From a virus: DNA of 64,000 nucleotides. The notes beneath the pieces are model-generated. The model did not search any database and was not told the origin of the DNA. It was given only the letters and a program-made list of their open reading frames with translations. Positions 2,065 to 51,549 of the stretch are shown here, in pieces (within the stretch, counting starts at the first letter, position 1; the number at the start of each line of letters is the position of its first letter). A program made the position numbers and the translations under genes. Location: IMG/VR virus record IMGVR_UViG_3300005747_000263, positions 10,012 to 74,011 of that record; one strand, given 5' to 3'.

Positions 2065-2432
2065 TAAATTAACTCCTTGATTCTCTTAAATAATTCACCC
2101 CAAGAACTCAAGTTCTTGTATTGTACGACGTTTGCGTCATCTTTTAATTCATCGCAATCATCAAAGAGTAAATCATATCGCACTTGTCGCTTAGAATACA
2201 TATTCTGTGCTTCAGGACTACTCAATACACTAATATTGTGTAATCGGTGTGCCTTAAGATTGTAATGAATACTTCTTAGATTAGTAATGGGTCGAGCAGT
2301 TAAAATAAAACAACTTACTTCTGGTGTATCATTTAATACTCTTAGCGCTTGTAATGCCCCATGCGTCCATTTAAACTCTGTGACGGAGTTATCTCTACAA
2401 GTATCATCCCAATCTATTGCAACTCTAATCAT
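2064..2432 (-). CDS. HAD-superfamily phosphatase/nucleotidase-like protein
   Basis: Motif I VAIDWDDT, motif II ILTAR, motif IV LLFDD. Confidence 0.7.
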   Translation of the reverse strand: MIRVAIDWDDTCRDNSVTEFKWTHGALQALRVLNDTPEVSCFILTARPITNLRSIHYNLKAHRLHNISVLSSPEAQNMYSKRQVRYDLLFDDCDELKDDANVVQYKNLSSWGELFKRIKELI

Positions 2433-2452
2433 ATTAAACTCTCAACTACTAG

Positions 2453-2534
2453 TGCCGGAAGTAGGATTCGAACCTACGAACCACTAAGGACAGGTTCTTA
2501 AGACCCGCGTCGTTGGCCACTTGACTATTCCGGC
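2453..2534 (-). tRNA. trnL: tRNA-Leu (anticodon UAA), no encoded CCA
   Basis: GCCGGAA/TTCCGGC acceptor stem, CGGGT-CTTAAGA-ACCTG anticodon arm, long variable arm, GTAGG-TTCGAAT-CCTAC T arm. Confidence 0.93.
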
Positions 2535-2642
2535 GAGTGGGTTAATTATTCCTCGTAATGAATACACTCTAACTGACATTCATCAGTAATAGTTCGCTTC
2601 CAGTACTCATAATAAGTGCGCTTGAAAAAACTCTTAATAAAG

Positions 2643-2876
2643 TTAATCATAGATAATTCCTGCAATGATTCCATTGCTAACAATTACTTTTCCGTAATTG
2701 CTGTCTGGAGTTGAAATGCAAATATATTGTCCATCGGGGATTCCAATCGGCGCAAGTTTACCAACTTTATAGTAATTACAATAGCAAACAATATACCCAT
2801 CAAAGTTCGTGTATGAATCATACCATTTAGTTTGCCAACTATATCCATCGTGCTCAATAGTGTCGTATAATCCCAT
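2643..2876 (-). CDS. hypothetical protein
   Basis: 77-aa ORF, TAATG-coupled. Confidence 0.55.
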   Translation of the reverse strand: MGLYDTIEHDGYSWQTKWYDSYTNFDGYIVCYCNYYKVGKLAPIGIPDGQYICISTPDSNYGKVIVSNGIIAGIIYD

Positions 2877-3106
2877 TAGTCATCCCATCCGGGCATAATC
2901 ATGTTAATCTCTGATGCAGCAATGCTAATAAGTTTAACTGCGCCGTCCTTACGTCGGTGCCTTACTTGCACCGGGCCATAATTCTTACCATCCATGGCGC
3001 AATTTACTTCATACTCATGGAACTCGCTTGACATATTCTCAGTAATATTGAGCATAGTCAGTCGTCCAATAGTAGTATAATTGATTCGAATATCGGCGTA
3101 CAACAT
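2876..3106 (-). CDS. hypothetical protein
   Basis: 76-aa ORF in operon. Confidence 0.55.
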   Translation of the reverse strand: MLYADIRINYTTIGRLTMLNITENMSSEFHEYEVNCAMDGKNYGPVQVRHRRKDGAVKLISIAASEINMIMPGWDD

Positions 3107-3107
3107 T

Positions 3108-3335
3108 TTACTTCACTTTCTTGTACGGATTAAAATAGCACCAAGTGTGAGTATTAAGTAAAGTTCTTAATGTTTCAATGCAGTCGTCCTTATCTTTATC
3201 GGTAGGACTAACTGCTCCACTAATTAACCAACTCTTGGTTAAGGATGAAATTAAGTGATAGGCGCGGCGTTGCCAAAAGCGAAACTTATACCCGCACCAT
3301 AAACAATGAGTATGTTTGGGCAATTCAATTTGCAT
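3108..3335 (-). CDS. hypothetical protein, possible Zn-binding (CLWC...HTWC)
   Basis: 75-aa ORF in operon. Confidence 0.5.
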   Translation of the reverse strand: MQIELPKHTHCLWCGYKFRFWQRRAYHLISSLTKSWLISGAVSPTDKDKDDCIETLRTLLNTHTWCYFNPYKKVK

Positions 3336-3422
3336 ATCTTAATCTTCCTCATCGCCTGTGATGAAAGGGATAATGTCAATGACTGGTACTTTATTCATAA
3401 TAAGTATACTCCTGATAATAAT

Positions 3423-3495
3423 TGGGGGCGTAGGGATTCCAACCCTAACTTAATTACAAGCGAAGTGCTATACCAAGCCGCGTTTGGTGGCCCCC
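3423..3495 (-). ncRNA. degenerate tRNA-like element (Thr/UGU-like loop)
   Basis: 73 nt; GGGGGC/GCCCCC-A acceptor-like stem, TAGGG-TTGGAAT-CCCTA T-like arm, GGTATAGCA and CTTGTAA resembling D-arm 3' side and anticodon loop; imperfect anticodon stem, almost no variable loop. Confidence 0.6.
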
Positions 3496-3499
3496 GTAA

Positions 3500-4030
3500 G
3501 GAAATGAAAATAGAGTTTTCTCTCAACTATTGTTATAGCGCTGTTGAGAATATAGGATTACTCTATAAACCTAAGTCAAATAATATACGTTGCATCTTCC
3601 CGATGCTAACTATACTGCATTTTGTGTACCATGTTAATAGTTTAATACCCTTTAACAATATAACGCTTTGCTATCTTTGGTAAAAAGATGCCACTCTTAA
3701 TACTTTATACTCGGTAGCCCCCGAGTCTCAAACACACTTAAATAGTGTGTGGAGAGTGAATAATTGGCGCAAGCGGCTAACTTGACTTAGGCTGATAACA
3801 AAGCGCCTAACTTTGTGTCCGTATCTCAATTAAATAACCCTAGCCAGGACTTTTAAATTTAATCAGACCAATCATTTCATTATATACTCTTTTATGAGCA
3901 ATTATCATCTCACTTAAAGAGTATAATACTTAACACGGTTTGACTCAATGTTAAGCAGAAAAGTGCCCCGACTCTAATCCAGTAATGGCGGTCGAGGACT
4001 TGGGTTTTTATTCGTAATACTTCACAGTAT
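3500..4030 (-). ncRNA. putative large structured ncRNA (B)
   Basis: No minus-strand ORF of 60 aa or more; about nine consecutive hairpins, with G-U pairs favouring the minus strand. Confidence 0.55.
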
Positions 4031-4037
4031 TCTTCTT

Positions 4038-4493
4038 TTAACTGTCGCGGACAGATTGAAGGGCACCCATGTATTCTTGGAACGAATCCATAGAATCAAA
4101 AGTGTCACCTCCGCTCATAAAGCCGAAAACTTCGCCCTTGACATCAATAGTCGCACCGGGCGTTCCATCGGCTTTAAGATACAATTCCGCCGGTAGGGGA
4201 ATTCCATCTTCCGTTGTTTCTTGACGCAATCGACGAATACTTACTTCCGTGTATTCACCTTTCGTTGGGTGCATGACCTGAGTCTTTTGCACCAAACGAA
4301 TGTGGTCGTTTCCGCGAATAAGGCGTTCGGAGAGAACATTACGTTCAATCTTTTGCCGTCCACGGGCTTTCTTTTCCAGATTAACCGCTTGGAATTTACT
4401 ATTATGAATAAATCCCAGAACGGTTCCGCTGGAATCACGGACGATAACATTGTTATCATCAATGATTGCGCCTTCGGGTAGGTTAGAAACCAT
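4038..4493 (-). CDS. hypothetical protein, possibly PC4-like single-stranded nucleic-acid-binding
   Basis: GGAGG RBS; beta-rich HIRLVQK...YTEVSIRRL...GFMSGG.TF then amphipathic C-terminal helix; fold call is pattern-based only. Confidence 0.6.
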   Translation of the reverse strand: MVSNLPEGAIIDDNNVIVRDSSGTVLGFIHNSKFQAVNLEKKARGRQKIERNVLSERLIRGNDHIRLVQKTQVMHPTKGEYTEVSIRRLRQETTEDGIPLPAELYLKADGTPGATIDVKGEVFGFMSGGDTFDSMDSFQEYMGALQSVRDS

Positions 4494-4499
4494 TTTAAT

Positions 4500-5365
4500 C
4501 CTCCATTATCCTTAATAAGAATACTCATGCCGTTAAATACCAAAACAACAACAAACCATGAACATCTACAAACAATACCTTTCCAGGTGACATGAGTAAA
4601 CTTATTAAGTAGGATAGAGGACATAAAGAGAACGATAAGTAGAAACTTACCGTTTAATCCCTTTATGCACGGATGAAGTCAGAGCAAAGACTGTTATTCT
4701 TAAACCCCATACGCCGGGTTTATCCGCTTACCTAAAGGTCCTTTTAATTAGGTAAGAAACGTTTTCAATTTTTATTCACTTAAAGCGCTACTCCTCGCTT
4801 GGTTATAATTAACAAGCAGAACTTTTAGTAAGCAAACGCCAATTTACTTTATTTCTTACCCTCATTAGTGTTATGTAAGGGGAATACATCCCTGCGGCCA
4901 AACTAACGGTACTTATTTACCTTATCGCCGTTGCGTATTTTACGCCTCTAAAATTATCTTCTTACTATACTGAAACATAAAATCCATAAAATGGTTAAGA
5001 TTTCGTAATCACTTTTATATTCCCGACAAGAGAGAATGTCACTTATCACGGAGGCGAATGTATCATTTTTATAGTCCACTACTTAAATGTAATGGACATA
5101 TGTGGCTGTCGATGCACACAATAAAACAAATACCGTACCTTAAGGTATAGTCCAGCAAGGCTGTCCAGATACTTGAATTACATATCGCGTGGCTTACACG
5201 CCTTAACCGAAATACACGGGAAGGGCGACACCTATCCCAAAAATGAACCCCGAGGGATGCATAAATGAAATAGTTATCGCGCCGCCCATCCCGCATATCG
5301 CAGATAAGACGCCACAAGACACCCTATTGGCCGGGATGCCGAAAGGTATATGAACCCCTACGTTA
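4500..5365 (-). ncRNA. putative large structured ncRNA (A)
   Basis: ORF-poor; nested long-range helices (4511-4531 with 4589-4609; 4621-4668; 4751-4760 with 4851-4860), GGAA tetraloop, many G-U pairs; TATA-like element upstream. Confidence 0.6.
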
Positions 5366-5368
5366 GGG

Positions 5369-5400
5369 TTATATAGGGGGCCGGGAACCTACATAAGGGT
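5369..5400 (-). promoter_or_regulatory. archaeal TATA-like promoter candidate for the ncRNA region
   Basis: Minus strand AACCCTTATGTA (5390-5401) and TATATAA (5369-5375); similar to AACCTTTATAC upstream of the 6918 gene. Confidence 0.45.
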
Positions 5401-5760
5401 TGCGCCACTAAATACCTTAACTCGGCCGCCATACATACAAGTAATACGCACTCAGTATCTATACAGTATAATCATAACACCATAATGATACCCTTAAACG
5501 CAACTCATGCTCACTTAAAGAGTAATTACTTCTACTCGGTACGAGTAAAGTAAGTATAATAAATCGAGGATGTAAAGTAAATACAATAAATTTTAGATTG
5601 TAAAGTAAATAACTTAAATGAATACTAATAAAAAAAGACACTCCCCGTATAATTATTCATGTTAGGTAAAGTGGGTAGAGGAGTAATTACCTTAGACTTT
5701 AGTCACAGGGAGTAATTACTATTGTTGGGATGAGGGTTTTTGGGTTAAACACCGAAAACC

Positions 5761-5870
5761 TCAGAATCGCTTTCTAAGGCACTTTCTTTACCCAAAAGGT
5801 AAGGATATACCACTATGTGCGGTAAAGTGTCTAAAAAGGCCGTTTCTGGGCTTCTGAGAGCATTTTAGAG
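5761..5870. repeat. phased ~100-bp element, copy A
   Basis: CAGAATCGCTTTCTAAGGC left arm with ~10.5-bp periodic right arm; related copies at 7851, 27522, 47311. Confidence 0.55.
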
Positions 5871-5907
5871 TAAGGGGGATAAGGTAAGATTGCACTAATG
5901 CGCTGTT

Positions 5908-6918
5908 TTAGTCCTTTTTGGCCGCGATTTGAACGTATTTTTGGACCGGAGCCTTCTTGGAAAGAAGTTTAGTCAAGTCTGTCTTAGGCAGACTAACACT
6001 TTCTCCTTCGGGAAGGTTTCCAATTGTTGGAATACGTCCATCAGCAGTCTTGAACACTTTACTGTTCTTCCGAGGACCATAAACATCATAACTCATGCGG
6101 TTGAAAAGAGACTTAACCTCTTTCTTGGCAAGATGACTAACAGCCTTACTGTTGTAATCATCTTCTTCAATGTGCTTAATCATATTATCAATGACCAAGC
6201 CATTAAAGACAGGTAGATTCGTTTGGACCCCGTTAATAACAGCATTACAGTACCGGAGTTTATTGGCATAATTCAAGAAGTCTGCCTTATCCATGTCTTT
6301 CAAGTTGGCAGGGAAATAACCATCTTTAATGGCTTTCTCCATTGTAAGTCCCAAAACATGATGGGCCACCAAGTCAAGAATCTTAGACACGAAGTAAGGC
6401 GAATAGTGACTTACACCGAGTCCGGCACCGTAAAGTTCTTTGTTCCCTGGAGCGTCTGTAAGAGAAGAAGCCCAGGTCACGCCGTGAATCGTATTAAAAC
6501 GAACGTTGGCGTGTAAATCGCGCTTAGCGACACGGACATTGGACTTAACAGACTTATAGCCGGTTTCATCCTTAAACTTAGACAAGAAGCGCTTCTTAGC
6601 GACATAATCGCTAACAGTCTCGATGACCATGTTTTTCTTATCCATGACACCCGCCTTGATTTCTTCAATAACTTTCAGGTTTTGAGCCATCAAGTAAGAA
6701 GCACAAAGGACCACAGCGTTTTCATACAACCTTTTCAGCGAGGCCGCACTTTGTTGCAGTTTTCCGGCGCTGGTGATTTTAATCTTAGGTTTGGATTGCT
6801 CCACCCAAAGATTAACATCTTTTTCGTGCGCCTTGTTCAGTTCAGCAAAAATGCGAGCATCGCGTGTGTTTTTGACATTAACCTTGTCGGTAATGTTCTT
6901 AAGTTTGTCGTTTTGCAT
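5908..6918 (-). CDS. Lys-rich hypothetical protein (336 aa)
   Basis: Long ORF with GGAG RBS and its own TATA-like element at 7037-7044; no recognised motif. Confidence 0.8.
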   Translation of the reverse strand: MQNDKLKNITDKVNVKNTRDARIFAELNKAHEKDVNLWVEQSKPKIKITSAGKLQQSAASLKRLYENAVVLCASYLMAQNLKVIEEIKAGVMDKKNMVIETVSDYVAKKRFLSKFKDETGYKSVKSNVRVAKRDLHANVRFNTIHGVTWASSLTDAPGNKELYGAGLGVSHYSPYFVSKILDLVAHHVLGLTMEKAIKDGYFPANLKDMDKADFLNYANKLRYCNAVINGVQTNLPVFNGLVIDNMIKHIEEDDYNSKAVSHLAKKEVKSLFNRMSYDVYGPRKNSKVFKTADGRIPTIGNLPEGESVSLPKTDLTKLLSKKAPVQKYVQIAAKKD

Positions 6919-7199
6919 AATCTAATCTCCTTATTTTTGGTAGAGATTTGAATTAAACTATACGGGGAGCGTATCAATCATAAGCACCTATTCGCGCCCA
7001 AAATGCGTTATTGTGCTTATGGTGGGGGAGGGTAAGGTATAAAGGTTAAGGTTGGGCCATCGCGTAAAGCGGAATACCTGCGGCGCGTCCTGCGCTTATT
7101 CGTCTTAATATGGAGTATACCTTGCAACTAGATAAGGCTGTCGATGTCTAATCCGCTTACCCAGAATCGCCGCCGATAACCCGAATAACCCAATTTCGC

Positions 7200-7840
7200 G
7201 GCCCATATGAGTAATTACTCCTGGTATATACTAATATAATACTATACACATACAGTATACACTAACATAATTACTCCCGTGTCCGTATACTAATCAATAT
7301 AATACTATACAATAAGTAATTATACATAATCAAAGTATACCTGTAATATATATAATTATACATAAGAAATAATTAACTTTGATTGGGGTAATTATACGCG
7401 AATCGACAGGTATAATTGACTTTTGAGGTAAATTTAGCACCACAAAGACATACTTATGTCCACCCCCCAAGACAATTACTCCTTACCCCCCAAGGTAATT
7501 TCTCCTTATCTGTCCCTCCAATCCAAGATAATTTATTCTTACTCGGAGTAAAGTTTAAAAAACTTTACGACTCGCAAAGATTTTTAATCTTTGCTCGATA
7601 CGAGTTAGGAGTAATTACCTTTGCTCGGCGACTCTATTGTATTAATAATAAATTTTGGGGCAAGAGTAATTACCTTTGCTCGGCAGGGTGTATTTAAGAT
7701 AAATAAGCGCTACTCGGCAGGAGGGTATTTAATTTAAATAATGAATCCCCAAGCAAAAGTAATTACCTTACCCCCCTAAGGGGGCAGGAAGTTTTATGAT
7801 TAAATGACCGAATTGGTCGGTCAGGAGGAATTACCTTTGG
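7200..7840. repeat. AT-rich region with many GTAATTAC boxes and a 21-bp direct repeat
   Basis: GAGTAATTACCTTTGCTCGGC at 7609-7629 and 7664-7684; further TAATTA(C) boxes near 7210, 7268, 7316, 7387, 7759. Confidence 0.75.
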
Positions 7841-7850
7841 TTCAGACGGT

Positions 7851-7945
7851 CAGAATCGCCGTCTAAGCCACTTCGAGCCTTCAACCCTCCACGGGATAGC
7901 CACCGTGCCGTCGAAGGCCACACGAGGCGCTTTAGGGCCTTTACG
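7851..7945. repeat. phased ~100-bp element, copy B
   Basis: CAGAATCGCCGTCTAAGCC left arm matches copy A. Confidence 0.5.
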
Positions 7946-8201
7946 TTGTACTCGCCCCGCAAGAGTTAATCGAAATACTCTCTACTCGCCGGGGATAAGG
8001 TATTTATAATATATCGGGCGGATTTTTTAAAAAAAATAAATTTAAAATTTATTATAAAAAAAATAAATTTTCACATCGTAAGTAAAATAAATAAATCCTG
8101 ATACCAAAAAAATTTAACCAATAAAATTTATTGGTTAAGAATAATAGATAGGGGGTCGGCCATGGGATCCCATGGGGAAAAGAAGAAGGGGGAAAATGGG
8201 C

Positions 8202-8447
8202 CTAAGATTCTTCAAAGGTCCCTTGGACCGACAGTTCCCCGCCACACCACTTGACGCCGTAGGCGAAGCGGTGGCGGTGGAACCGCCGGCCGCCGGGATT
8301 CTGAGCCGCGCCAGACAAGACGGGTACGGAAGGATGGAGGTTGCACGTTGCGACGGTTGTCATTTGGGCCGCCATTTTACACAACCCTTCCGTCGTCAAG
8401 AAGGAGCCCGCAACGGATAGAATCGGTAGGAACCGATACCCATCCAT
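8202..8447 (-). CDS. hypothetical protein (true start may be downstream)
   Basis: GC-rich ORF followed by a pyrimidine tract. Confidence 0.45.
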   Translation of the reverse strand: MDGYRFLPILSVAGSFLTTEGLCKMAAQMTTVATCNLHPSVPVLSGAAQNPGGRRFHRHRFAYGVKWCGGELSVQGTFEES

Positions 8448-8742
8448 CGGTCGTCACACTTCGCACTTCAACCCATCCCTTAACGAAAGATTCACCGGGA
8501 CGGATGAACCCATAATCGGGATGAACCAAGGAGCCGGTACGACCGACCACTTGGGACAATTCAACACCCAAGTTGGCCAGTTGGTCCGGCACTTTTGCCG
8601 CTTCTTCCTGTGCCCACTTGATTTCGTCGCGCATGAGGGCGTAAACCTCCTTTTGGGTCAAGCCTTCTTGACGGGCAACCCACTTCAATTCGTAGTGTTT
8701 GCGCAGTAGTTTGTAGATTTCGCGTTTGTGCATATTGTTCAA
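8377..8742 (-). CDS. hypothetical protein, possible N-terminal HTH
   Basis: LKWVARQEGLTQKEVYALM resembles helix-turn-helix; GGTGA upstream. Confidence 0.55.
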   Translation of the reverse strand: MNNMHKREIYKLLRKHYELKWVARQEGLTQKEVYALMRDEIKWAQEEAAKVPDQLANLGVELSQVVGRTGSLVHPDYGFIRPGESFVKGWVEVRSVTTDGWVSVPTDSIRCGLLLDDGRVV

Positions 8743-8817
8743 ATCCTGGTCACCGCGCCTTTCCGCGCCTGTCGCGACCGTATGGAGGGAAGAAGGGGAA
8801 AAGGGACCGGAGTCGGT

Positions 8818-9159
8818 CTAAGCGTCCAAGGACAGGCTAAGGAGTGCGTAAGCCTGTTCCTTAGTGTGTCCAGCGTCTTGAAGGGCCGCGATAGCCACTT
8901 CGTGCTGAGCCGCTTTGCGGCTTTCAATGGCCGCTTCTTGAGCGCGGACAAACCGGCCCGCTTCTTCAATCCCGGCACCGAACGCTTCTTGGGCCGCCAT
9001 GAGGAACACGTCTTGAGCCTGTTCCATCAAGTCGTTCGACTTGGAGTAGTCGGCCGCCTTGAAAGCGTCCGAAGCACGGCGAAGAAGGCCCTTGGCGGTT
9101 TCAACAGCCGTGTTTAGGCCGGAGGCGGTGGTTTGTTGTGGTGGTTGGTATTTTGCCAT
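8818..9159 (-). CDS. hypothetical alpha-helical protein
   Basis: 113 aa, Ala-rich; TATA element upstream; hairpin plus pyrimidine tract downstream (8787-8817). Confidence 0.65.
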   Translation of the reverse strand: MAKYQPPQQTTASGLNTAVETAKGLLRRASDAFKAADYSKSNDLMEQAQDVFLMAAQEAFGAGIEEAGRFVRAQEAAIESRKAAQHEVAIAALQDAGHTKEQAYALLSLSLDA

Positions 9160-9221
9160 TTTTGGTTATCCCGCCGGACCGGGTCCCGCCCAGTTCGACA
9201 AAGAAGCCATTATCGCCGATA

Positions 9222-9233
9222 GTATATAACCCT
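9222..9233 (-). promoter_or_regulatory. archaeal TATA box candidate
   Basis: AGGGTTATATAC on the minus strand ~60 nt upstream of the ATG at 9159. Confidence 0.5.
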
Positions 9234-9261
9234 ATACGGTAAGCCCAATACGTCCAGATTT

Positions 9262-9320
9262 CAGTATGGTGCAGTAAGAATCAGCACCATTCAGTACCAT
9301 GCAGAACCATGCAGTATGGG
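9262..9320. repeat. 10-bp tandem repeat (CAG at exact 10-bp spacing, six copies)
   Basis: CAG at 9262, 9272, 9282, 9292, 9302, 9312. Confidence 0.7.
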
Positions 9321-9409
9321 AACCCGTCACTCTGAATCGCCGGACCCGGCGCCGCCGTGGTAAGGTCCATATGCGCCGTCGGGAAAATTGGAATTTTTTT
9401 AGAATCAAA

Positions 9410-9557
9410 TAATTACTCCTGTATCTAAAGATAGAGATAATTACCCCTGTGTCCAGGGACTAAGATAATTACTCCTGTGTCTAAAGACTAAGTTAATTAC
9501 CCCTATGTCCTAGGACGAAGTTAATTACTTCTGTGTCCAGTGTTGGTGGTAATTTTT
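9410..9557. repeat. 28-bp tandem array TAATTACYCCTGT-[palindrome]-TAAG
   Basis: Units start at 9410, 9438, 9466, 9494, 9522 and a degenerate one at 9550. Confidence 0.9.
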
Positions 9558-9653
9558 CCCGCTCGATGGGTAATTATCTTTGCTTGGTGATGGGTTTAAC
9601 GTATTTAAGTGAAGGCTTGGTTTTTGATTCACGATTATTTTTATTGGTAATTT

Positions 9654-10013
9654 ATGGAACTTAAGAAGGTTAGTCTTGGGGGGCACATTTTGTGTCCGGC
9701 GTTTTCGTTTAGCGGGGAGGGTGCTTTGCGGTGCGCGGCGAATTTGGCGCGGTCGTATGGGATTGTTGTTCCTGAGTTTGTTTGTGCGGATGGTGCTGTC
9801 CTTGATTTGTTTTGTGATGGCGAGTTTTTGGTGTTGAATTTTTTGTCGGGGGAGCAATTAATTTTTGGTGACTTAATTTTTGGTCACGAGTTTAATGGTG
9901 ATTTGAATAGGAACATTGATGTTTACTCTTTACTTTTTGGGTCGGGTTTGGCTTTTTCTTTTCTTGATGAGTGTTATGTTTGCGGTGAGGTTAGGGGGAG
10001 GCATTTTAAGTGA
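9654..10013 (+). CDS. hypothetical protein
   Basis: 119 aa, GTGA-coupled to the next ORF; first gene of the plus-strand block. Confidence 0.45.
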   Translation: MELKKVSLGGHILCPAFSFSGEGALRCAANLARSYGIVVPEFVCADGAVLDLFCDGEFLVLNFLSGEQLIFGDLIFGHEFNGDLNRNIDVYSLLFGSGLAFSFLDECYVCGEVRGRHFK

Positions 10014-10339
10014 TACTGGATTATAAGCGTGAGTCTTTGATGGCTTTTATTACGTCGGCGATTGGTTCTGCTAAGGTGGAGCGGATGTGGCCGCGCGTGG
10101 ACCGGCTCGTGATTATGTGGCAGCAATGTAATGAGTTGTCGGGTTGGTTGGAGGAGAACGTGGATTTGATTGGTTCTAAGGAGTATAAGGAGAACGTGAC
10201 TTCTTTGAATGCGTTGCTTCAGAATACGCGGAACTTGGAGAATGACCTCGCGGTGTTTGAGGAGCGGCGCGCTGGGGTGGATGATTCGGCGGATTTACTT
10301 TCTTCGTTGGGTCTCGGTAGTGGTAAGAAGGAGGTTTAA
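10010..10339 (+). CDS. putative terminase small subunit
   Basis: Helical 109-aa protein shortly upstream of TerL; position-based call. Confidence 0.4.
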   Translation: MILDYKRESLMAFITSAIGSAKVERMWPRVDRLVIMWQQCNELSGWLEENVDLIGSKEYKENVTSLNALLQNTRNLENDLAVFEERRAGVDDSADLLSSLGLGSGKKEV

Positions 10340-10340
10340 T

Positions 10341-10613
10341 ATGGATAATAATGAGATTAGGTTTACATTGTCAGATAAGCAACGAGAATTGTTAGAAATG
10401 CATTTTGGTCCTGAGTATGGATTAATGCTTAGTGATAGAGTATTACATTTATTGACGGATATTCTTGTACAGAAGAGTAAGCAAGTTACTTATCCTTCGG
10501 ACCCACGGGTTTTTGATTTCGAGAAATCAAGGGATGGAACGAGCCCTATGGTTAATCCTTGGGATTGGACTATTACTTGCAATCAAGAAATTCCAATGAC
10601 TAGTATTTGTTAG
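10341..10613 (+). CDS. hypothetical protein
   Basis: Likely start MDNNEIRF at 10341 after GGAGG. Confidence 0.55.
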   Translation: MDNNEIRFTLSDKQRELLEMHFGPEYGLMLSDRVLHLLTDILVQKSKQVTYPSDPRVFDFEKSRDGTSPMVNPWDWTITCNQEIPMTSIC

Positions 10614-47569: not shown

Positions 47570-47812
47570 TTACTTCATAAGTTTCCTTGCTTTAGTTACT
47601 AGTCGAGGAGTAATTACTCTTATCAACCTATCATAATGATACCTTGATATGGTTCCTTGTTCTAATTGTTTATCTAATGCAGGTAAATAACTCTTACTTA
47701 ACCACTTAATGATTTCTTTTTCTCGTTCAACGCTAAGTTTCTTATGAGTAATTACTTCTCCCTCCGTAGGAGACTGGTTAGTATTACTCTTGTTTACTGT
47801 TTTCTTTGGCAT
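47570..47812 (-). CDS. small basic hypothetical protein
   Basis: 80 aa; last gene of the minus-strand block. Confidence 0.5.
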   Translation of the reverse strand: MPKKTVNKSNTNQSPTEGEVITHKKLSVEREKEIIKWLSKSYLPALDKQLEQGTISRYHYDRLIRVITPRLVTKARKLMK

Positions 47813-50742: not shown

Positions 50743-50977
50743 TTGGGATTCCTCCCGAAATTCTAACTACTATATTATTATTACTTGGAACTTGTCTCTC
50801 TAAATACCAAATAGCTTTCCTGATATCTTCCTCGAAGTTACCCTTGTGTTCTGCTCTTGCAATATACTTTAATGCATTACCAAGGCAGAAGTTAAGATTC
50901 CAATCTTCGATTACATCGATGACTTCAAACTTGCCCGTATTATAGTGAGCCGGGTGGTTAACGTTTTCTTCACTCAT
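50729..50977 (-). CDS. DUF3310-like protein
   Basis: VNHPAHY, EVID, GNALKY..RA..K, EDIRKA.WYL. Confidence 0.85.
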   Translation of the reverse strand: MSEENVNHPAHYNTGKFEVIDVIEDWNLNFCLGNALKYIARAEHKGNFEEDIRKAIWYLERQVPSNNNIVVRISGGIPNDSS

Positions 50978-51549
50978 TGCACCACTTCTAACTCAGGACT
51001 TGATTCCAAGATGTGAGTAAGAATCTCCATCGCAACAATAGCTTGATGCTTAGCATCGTCCAAGCCATTGTGATGCGTTCCTTCACGAGTAATACTCTTC
51101 TCGATAGATGGGTACAAGTTCTTCAGTGTACGGTAGCACCGTTCCTGATAGAATCTCCATGGTGTAGGAGTATTCGTACCGGTTGCGGCACTAACTAATT
51201 TATATGAATGATTTAGGATAGCACAATCGAATGTCGGAGCATTACCCCATACATGCTTGATGCCTTTACCCAGACAGAACTTTCTAAACTCAAGCATTGC
51301 ATCGGTAAAGTCTTCTTTACCTTTCAATTCTTCTTGCGCTTCCGTAGACTGATTTATCCACCACAATACCGTATCGGCACCAACAGTTGCTCCGGCGGCT
51401 TGAGCCGACCGAGGATTGATTCGCACATGGAATTCATCCGTAACACCGTCTTTCAGGTTGAATACGACAGCACCAATTGCAGTAACTACTGCGGTGCTAA
51501 CATTATCCATAGTTTCAATATCAATCATTAAATGATTATCGTTATACAT
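50974..51549 (-). CDS. DEDDh 3'-5' exonuclease (DUF5051-like)
   Basis: MIDIET, WGNAPTFD..IL, HNGLDDA. Confidence 0.85.
   Translation of the reverse strand: MYNDNHLMIDIETMDNVSTAVVTAIGAVVFNLKDGVTDEFHVRINPRSAQAAGATVGADTVLWWINQSTEAQEELKGKEDFTDAMLEFRKFCLGKGIKHVWGNAPTFDCAILNHSYKLVSAATGTNTPTPWRFYQERCYRTLKNLYPSIEKSITREGTHHNGLDDAKHQAIVAMEILTHILESSPELEVVQ

Follow-up and report, generated by a model that had tools for sequence, protein, structure and literature searches.

Genomic context of stretch B

The DNA analysed here (64,000 nt, hereafter the window) comprises bases 10012-74011 of a 74,011 bp IMG/VR virus record, the ends of which repeat each other over 52 bp. The gene content is that of a phage of the tailed type: genes for the large terminase, the portal and the major head protein lie on the plus strand, and the minus strand encodes a family B DNA polymerase, a class II ribonucleotide reductase and a Cas4-like nuclease. 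The minus strand also carries an Rv2179c-like 3'-5' exoribonuclease (50974-51549; PF16473, E 5.5e-48), possibly an enzyme that trims the 3' ends of RNAs or tRNAs. From approximately position 9160 down to 17 every credible gene is on the minus strand. This leftward arm contains two tRNA genes found by ARAGORN, a tRNA-Arg (425-500) and a tRNA-Leu (2452-2534), and three long ORF-free stretches, located at 3399-4037, at 4494-5907 (stretch A) and at approximately 6919-8200 (stretch C).

The first of these stretches, a gap of 639 nt, consists of stretch B and a tRNA-like element (3423-3496). Stretch B (3498-4037, minus strand) is 540 nt long, ORF-free and rich in hairpins, and it extends from the stop codon of an orphan gene of 151 aa to the tRNA-like element. 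B has the same orientation as all its neighbouring genes, and the genes that flank it carry strong ribosome sites.

The 151-aa gene (4038-4493, minus strand) lies upstream of B, is preceded by a GGAGGA ribosome site and has a 3-base periodicity of 6.3. An exhaustive HMMER search among 1.84 billion representatives returned one homologue, P0009, a protein of 153 aa encoded on a 948-nt Logan contig, approximately 480 nt of which is flanking sequence. Since the two proteins are approximately 40% identical over their full length, with conserved blocks that include RLRQE, PLPA and GEVFGF, we consider the 151-aa gene to be real. No Pfam or PHROG family and no RNA-binding family matched the 151-aa protein. 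Its AlphaFold model was unusable (pLDDT 37), and in the ESM Atlas it had weak structural neighbours only, among them a weak match to DUF3276 (PUR-like). Just upstream of the gene, at 4499-4621 on the minus strand, an interrupted inverted repeat with 31-nt arms that are 81% complementary pairs the GGAGGA of the gene with upstream sequence. Further upstream lies another orphan, a gene of 336 aa (5908-6918) with a strong codon periodicity (20.5). Part of this gene (6100-6740) has a shuffle z of -6.5, a value not surpassed by any of the ORF-free stretches tested.

On the other side, the downstream end of the gap is marked by an ORF of 19 aa (3339-3398, minus strand; MNKVPVIDIIPFITGDEED) with an AGGAG ribosome site. 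Its stop codon lies 3 nt before the ATG of a 75-aa ORF (3108-3335), and it could represent either a small gene or a leader peptide.

Stretch B is non-coding

The non-coding status of B is firm. Each minus-strand frame contains all three stop codons. The genome median for 3-base periodicity is 7.4; at 1.8, B falls under the 10th percentile of the window. Stop-codon recoding was tried and rejected: when TGA, TAG or TAA alone is treated as a sense codon, the longest minus-strand frame that results has no more than 71 codons. Ribosome sites precede just two starts, one of a frame within the 151-aa gene and the other of the 19-aa ORF, and the true gap is therefore 3399-4037.

It is very improbable that any small protein gene is concealed in B, or that a plus-strand ORF at 3306-3683 is real. 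The candidates would be minus-strand ORFs of 31-43 aa with TTG starts and the plus-strand ORF itself, which has an ATG start and spans 125 aa. However, all of these are without a ribosome site, neither the small TTG ORFs nor the 125-aa ORF matched a Pfam or PHROGs family even at E <= 1, and the absence of 3-base periodicity and the failure of stop-codon reassignment to open a longer minus-strand frame speak against hidden genes in general. The 125-aa ORF is moreover antisense to all its neighbours and crosses the tRNA-like element. On the strength of the ribosome-site, periodicity and family searches, we ruled out both the small ORFs and the plus-strand ORF.

Predicted fold of stretch B

The initial annotation had described this stretch as a structured RNA made of a string of hairpins, and all the hairpins that it listed were found in the sequence as well as in the minus-strand minimum free energy (MFE) and centroid folds. 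In the 5' to 3' direction the fold runs from a GNRA-capped hairpin through H1, H2, H3, a linker, a multi-branch domain and a two-tier hairpin to the tRNA-like element, which follows after 13 nt. The GNRA-capped hairpin (H0, 4016-4031, minus strand) begins 6 nt past the stop codon of the 151-aa gene and consists of 6 A/U base pairs closed by a GUGA loop. H1 (3955-4001, minus strand; hairpin 3961-4001, core 3965-3999) has an 11-bp G+C-rich stem, with one G.U pair and one bulged C, and an 18-nt loop, and is followed by UUUUCUGCUU. In H2 (3927-3957, minus strand) GCUUAACA pairs with UGUUAAGU. H3 (3883-3925, minus strand) combines a perfect 10-bp stem with an inner 5-bp stem (GUGAG/CUCAU), and its loop, AUAAUUG, is complementary to positions 3760-3766.

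The linker between H3 and the core domain folds loosely. It contains a 7-bp hairpin, H4 (3798-3816, minus strand), the UAGGC loop of which can alternatively pair with GCCUA at 3788-3792. This alternative gives a hairpin of 6 bp listed in the initial annotation (3788-3809; UUAGGC/GCCUAA), which is possible but competes with two stronger pairings, the local hairpin H4 and a long-range helix of 18 bp. The latter, absent from the original list, closes the core domain.

This core domain (3560-3800, minus strand) is a multi-branch fold of 240 nt with five inner hairpins, including those at 3731-3749, 3709-3726, 3670-3691 and 3592-3606 (GCAUC-GGGAA-GAUGC). The closing helix pairs 3562-3580 with 3780-3798 over 18 bp, with three G.U pairs and one bulge. 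The MFE and centroid folds of the domain are nearly equal, and the domain is thus well defined. The last hairpin of B, at 3510-3566 on the minus strand, has two tiers, AUAGAGU/ACUCUAU around UCUCAAC/GUUGAGA. Its loop contains the palindrome AGCGCU; approximately 0.8 loop palindromes are expected by chance.

Contacts between these elements, and between A and B, had been put forward as a means of testing the structure. Within B the longest complementarity between unpaired segments is one of 7 nt, between the H3 loop AUAAUUG and CAAUUAU in the junction of the core; however, 7 of 300 shuffled sequences matched that length, and the count of complementarities of at least 5 nt within B was not above that of the shuffles. 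Between A and B no excess was found: in a crude global test the duplex energy was -213.1, against -212.5 +/- 6.8 for shuffled B. In the single-sequence fold of B one multistem junction is clear and one loop-to-junction pairing is a candidate; hallmarks of tertiary motifs are few, namely the one GNRA loop and the 7-nt complementarity.

Strength of the fold signal

Compared with its own shuffled sequence, B is the more stably folded. The minus strand of the whole stretch has an MFE of -144.6 kcal/mol (z -4.74), and none of 100 dinucleotide shuffles was as stable; the same held for none of 200 shuffles of the core domain (z -4.70) and none of 200 shuffles of the 5' hairpin trio (z -4.20), both on the minus strand. 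Perfect hairpins of at least 7 bp occur at 5.6 per kb in B and at 1.6 per kb genome-wide, a 3.5-fold difference that places B in the top 5% of 540-nt windows. The description of B as hairpin-rich and structured is therefore borne out against shuffles, at a z of -4.74 that lies within the range of coding controls. Thirteen such controls from the same genome had shuffle z values from -0.4 to -6.5: those of 641 nt gave -1.4, -6.5, -2.0 and -3.7, and those of 540 nt ranged from -0.4 to -4.7, with B at -3.4 in the same run.

We also scanned the genome in 300-nt windows on the transcribed strand, correcting the folding energy for G and C content. After this correction the windows of B fell between the 8th and the 20th percentile of genome windows, and B was approximately 1 SD off the genome mean. 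The G+C content of B, 37%, equals that of its flanks. In the same scan windows in A (4390-4789 and 4990-5489) and C (7490-7889) were within the top 0.1-2.4%. B consequently folds beyond chance when measured against shuffles, yet its fold is not exceptional for its genome and its signal is the weakest among the three ORF-free stretches; A and C hold a much stronger one. On the transcribed strand the strongest folding of the genome is found in A and C, and the entire locus is therefore rich in RNA structure.

The initial annotation had also held that wobble pairs favour the minus strand. This is weakly supported for B as a whole, which has 15 G.U pairs on the minus strand and 13 on the plus strand, with MFE values of -144.6 and -130.4 kcal/mol, respectively. 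The 5' trio prefers the minus strand (z -4.2 vs -2.0 on the plus strand), and the long-range clamp helix gains its three G.U pairs on the minus strand only. The claim does not extend to the core domain, which is without strand preference (z -4.70 on the minus and -5.32 on the plus strand).

Other structured or unusual regions

Both of the other ORF-free stretches have features of their own. When the genome is ranked by composition-corrected folding energy, the A windows 4390-4789 and 4990-5489 (minus strand) fall within the first 0.5-2.4%. Their preference for this strand is strong (z -2.1 to -2.8 on the minus strand and -0.6 to +1.4 on the plus strand), and a 1027-nt fold of -333 kcal/mol has a centroid near the MFE structure; the RNA signal of A is far above that of B. 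The strongest folding of the whole genome is found in C at 7490-7889 (ranks 1 and 3 of 738), on both strands, and coincides with a cluster of repeats of approximately 26 nt (AAGAGTAATTACCTTTGCTCGGCAGG).

The motif AGTAATTAC occurs in 17 copies, where 0.68 are expected. The copies are concentrated in ORF-free stretches, with none in B, and fall in the regions 5521-5720, 7210-7766 and 47609-47756. At 9402-9541 there is a 28-bp tandem array of TAATTACYCCTGT units. Together, the AGTAATTAC copies and the TAATTACYCCTGT array are candidates for phage-specific promoters or operators. At 8160-9400 lies an island of 55-59% G+C in a genome of approximately 38% G+C; it contains two orphan minus-strand ORFs (8377-8742 and 8818-9159) with no Pfam matches. 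An assembly join or the insertion of foreign DNA may account for it. Finally, at the start of the rightward late genes (9600-10400), the GC skew reaches approximately +0.5 and the minus strand is almost unfoldable, with an MFE of -16 to -34 kcal/mol per 300 nt and z up to +4.7.

A tRNA-like element at the 3' end of stretch B

Another claim of the initial annotation, that the 3' end of the RNA abuts a tRNA mimic, agrees with our results: the structured part of B stops 13 nt short of an acceptor/T-arm minihelix on the same strand (3423-3496, minus strand). The element has a 6-bp G/C acceptor stem, a discriminator A, a 5-bp T stem and the loop UUGGAAU, is without a proper anticodon arm, and has a G instead of C56 in the T loop. 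A genome scan for acceptor/T-arm minihelices returned only three weak A+T-rich matches, all within genes, in addition to the two true tRNAs and this element; besides the two tRNAs, it is the only minihelix in the genome with a G+C-rich acceptor. ARAGORN, which finds only the two true tRNAs, missed it, as did the Rfam tRNA model (RF00005) even at E <= 10, and with an acceptor stem and a T arm in the absence of an anticodon arm it does not qualify as a member of that family. A search for decayed tRNA genes within B itself gave no tRNA-model match at E <= 10.

An acceptor/T-arm minihelix is what RNase P recognises. For this reason we infer that the element may be an RNase P substrate, a candidate cleavage site that would set the 3' end of B. 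As the element falls below every tRNA detector and its own fold is not above that of shuffles (z -0.59), cleavage there is best regarded as putative.

An exact scan of IMG/VR for the T arm of the element gave four matches, all unrelated. The unusual T loop UUGGAAU also occurs in an uncalled element that precedes ACTCCGCACCACCACCACCA in an unrelated IMG/VR phage of 86 kb (locus L165, 5121-5160), which has a tRNA island of five tRNAs and a tmRNA.

Promoter-like and terminator-like signals

Several sigma-70-like sites were found on the minus strand of B, directly downstream of H1 and further on in the core. One (3609-3637), TTAACA-17-TATAGT, matches 10 of 12 consensus positions and lies within the core domain. 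Two others overlap each other at 3879-3948, TTGAGT-17-TATACT (9 of 12) and ATGATA-18-TATAAT (10 of 12). The loop of H2 carries TTGAGT, the first hexamer of one of these sites, and H3 overlaps two promoter-like -10 hexamers. A scan of the minus strand from 5900 to 2400 for intrinsic terminators of standard form returned none except a weak one at 4631-4654.

Comparison with known RNA families and search for relatives

No Rfam family matched B on either strand at gathering scores, and none at E <= 10 when 7.1 kb was searched; a search of 711 nt with the most permissive filters, again at E <= 10, was equally negative. This includes group I and group II introns, RNase P RNA, tmRNA, 6S and other large RNAs, and ARAGORN found no tmRNA in the window. 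B matched neither the covariance model of ROOL (RF03087) nor that of GOLLD (RF01998), notably with respect to the conserved 3' domain of the latter.

The initial annotation had proposed an RNA of ROOL-like size. ROOL and GOLLD are large phage RNAs of several hundred nt that are located beside tRNA islands (PMC5737381; 10.1101/2024.12.08.627333), and ROOL has a mean length of 581 nt (PMC5737381). The comparison holds only in length, B having 540 nt and ROOL 581 nt on average (PMC5737381), and in the position of B on the side of the tRNAs; it does not extend to the ROOL and GOLLD models, which remained unmatched at E <= 10. With 540 nt in a phage record, near tRNAs, B agrees with what accompanies ROOL, namely a length of approximately 580 nt, an origin in phages or prophages and a frequent proximity to tRNA genes; these are features of context and do not define the family. 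Like ROOL and GOLLD, B is phage-borne, several hundred nt long, ORF-free, built of many helices and located beside tRNAs; unlike them, it matches neither covariance model, is not enriched in G+C and folds with a signal that does not exceed the background of the genome.

Two processing systems also invite comparison. In tRNA-punctuated processing, RNase P cuts on the 5' side of a tRNA or tRNA-like element and so creates the 3' end of the RNA that precedes it; examples are MALAT1/mascRNA and tRNA-containing operons of bacteria and phages, among them the T4 tRNA region, which includes the stable RNAs C and D. B resembles MALAT1/mascRNA and the T4 tRNA region in that a structured RNA is followed, on the same strand, by an acceptor/T-arm minihelix, in an arm that also carries true tRNAs. 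The element differs from those systems in having no anticodon arm and a G at C56, in failing all tRNA detectors and in that its cleavage is putative. Long near-perfect duplexes, for their part, are the kind of structure that is cut by RNase III, as in phage early transcripts and rRNA leader-trailer stems. In B a near-perfect 18-bp helix clamps a folded insert, and hairpins with internal loops lie between the genes of a polycistronic unit, as in units processed by RNase III; unlike in those systems, no further copy of the clamp was found in the rest of the genome or among the fetched loci.

Relatives of the locus were sought in several collections. B had no homologue by megablast and blastn among 50,697 phage records, and the locus had none in GTDB genomes. 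IMG/VR, searched with the 151-aa protein, P0009, their alignment, TerL and a TerL alignment, yielded only relatives of at most 31% identity. In JGI metagenomes the TerL alignment retrieved a sole close match, L082, a 2-kb sequence with the 5' end of TerL that lies outside the B region. A word-indexed set of 5.8 billion proteins contained no relatives of the 151-aa or the 336-aa neighbour. Searching 1.45 Mb of fetched loci with nhmmer gave no match to B, and a single-sequence covariance model of the core, run against the window and the fetched loci, found only itself and hence no paralogue. For TerL, six relatives with 49-56% identity (P0002-P0007) were found, all on Logan contigs, which measure up to 19.8 kb. 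Judged from these sequence comparisons, relatives exist, among the collections searched, only on Logan contigs.

No close cultured relative of the phage was found: its best TerL matches among the 50,697 phage records are 25-27% identical. As one of these matches is an Altiarchaeum virus, the host may even be archaeal.

Interpretation

The reading that we favour, although we give it somewhat less than an even chance, is that B is a transcribed structured spacer or a processed RNA with a 3' end set at the tRNA-like element by RNase P. In its favour are the lack of coding capacity, the gene arm with all its genes on one strand, a well-defined fold that beats its shuffles, the hairpin density, the minus-strand G.U pairs of the clamp, the adjacent minihelix, the scarcity of standard terminators between 5900 and 2400, and the strong folding of A and C nearby; it is weakened by a z within the range of coding controls, a G+C content like that of the flanks, a core that prefers neither strand, the poor scores of the tRNA-like element and the few tertiary hallmarks. 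Its transcript could arise by read-through from the 151-aa gene, from the promoter-like sites in the 5' third of B, or from both. RNase P would cut at the 5' boundary of the tRNA-like element (G at 3495), thereby creating the 3' end of B and detaching it from the small genes that follow. RNase III might act on the 18-bp clamp and on H3, and the stacked 3' hairpins would shield the released piece, or the mRNA of the 151-aa gene, from 3' exonucleases. The released piece would measure approximately 200-540 nt and may have a role of its own. If the promoter and terminator signals are real, the order could be a terminator, a promoter and an RNA of 375-415 nt ending at the tRNA-like element, or else B could be a regulatory spacer.

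The last possibility can be carried further and B be read at the level of DNA, in which case H1 with its U-run would terminate transcription of the 151-aa gene, host-type promoters within B would restart it to cover the tRNA-like element and the downstream small genes, and the palindromes H2 and H3 would serve as repressor operators rather than as RNA helices. H1 does resemble a terminator, with its 11-bp G+C-rich stem followed by UUUUCUGCUU at 37 nt past the stop codon, yet its 18-nt loop is oversized for a classical terminator and the terminator scan did not report it. Eight of the 13 minus-strand sigma-70-like sites in 2400-6000 fall inside the 639-nt gap, seven of them in B, and B holds two of only 18 sites genome-wide (both strands, 74 kb) that match 10 of 12 positions, both in the direction of transcription. 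However, the remaining 16 strong sites are scattered in coding sequence and on the wrong strands, the consensus may not be that of the phage or of its host, which is possibly archaeal, and the over-represented motif of the phage itself, AGTAATTAC, marks other ORF-free stretches and is absent from B. H2 and H3 overlap promoter-like hexamers and are perfectly palindromic by Watson-Crick pairing, and the core folds equally well on both strands, which speaks for a DNA-level element; the geometry is nevertheless atypical for operators, with arms 13-23 bp apart and an 18-bp helix that spans 200 nt. We regard this explanation as possible but doubtful. A trans-acting large RNA that stands alone and belongs to a new class, functionally analogous to ROOL or GOLLD and possibly acting together with the 151-aa protein and RNA A, seems unlikely to us. 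The length of 540 nt, the origin in a phage and the location on the margin of an arm that bears tRNAs agree with the known setting of ROOL and GOLLD (PMC5737381; 10.1101/2024.12.08.627333), the multi-branch core is well defined, the 7-nt loop-to-junction complementarity could form a pseudoknot, the palindrome AGCGCU in the terminal loop could form a kissing dimer, and the flanking 151-aa gene is conserved in one relative. These points have to be set against a structure signal that is not above that of coding sequence, a G+C content that is not enriched, the failure to find an Rfam match or, by nhmmer or covariance model, a homologue or paralogue, the approximately 0.8 loop palindromes expected by chance, a complementarity to A that is not in excess, and a 151-aa protein with a pLDDT of 37 and no match to an RNA-binding family. 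We rate just as low the chance of the more specific scenario in which RNase P releases B, as a large RNA of an undescribed class, at a degenerate tRNA-like element, and A and B form a module around the 151-aa protein, in a phage of a possibly archaeal host.

Finally, B could be functionless filler, derived from decayed genes or a drifted spacer, in which the hairpins reflect the general folding tendency of an A+T-rich genome. Coding controls that reach z -4.7 and -6.5, the position of B approximately 1 SD from the genome mean after composition correction, and the absence of a conserved relative from every collection searched would all be compatible with this. Nonetheless, phage genomes are compact and a gap of 639 nt is costly; B is without the residual codon periodicity of a decayed gene, its hairpin density is that of the top 5% of windows, its core has a centroid nearly equal to the MFE fold, and it sits exactly between the stop codon of a gene and the tRNA-like element. 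We therefore consider filler improbable.

The inference of the initial annotation, a discrete ncRNA of ROOL-like size, is thus supported in part: B is non-coding, rich in hairpins, on the transcribed strand and next to the tRNA-like element, and its release as a discrete RNA is putative. At present B is one orphan sequence with a fold that is unexceptional for its genome. Its value for now is as a pointer to the locus, since the region between 3.3 and 8.2 kb of the window holds an unusual wealth of ORF-free, folding sequence. If B were a conserved stand-alone RNA, it would represent a further class of large phage RNA, of which very few, such as ROOL and GOLLD, are known. Were that so, the tRNA-like 3' processing signal would offer a clue to the maturation of B, and the 151-aa protein would be a candidate partner.
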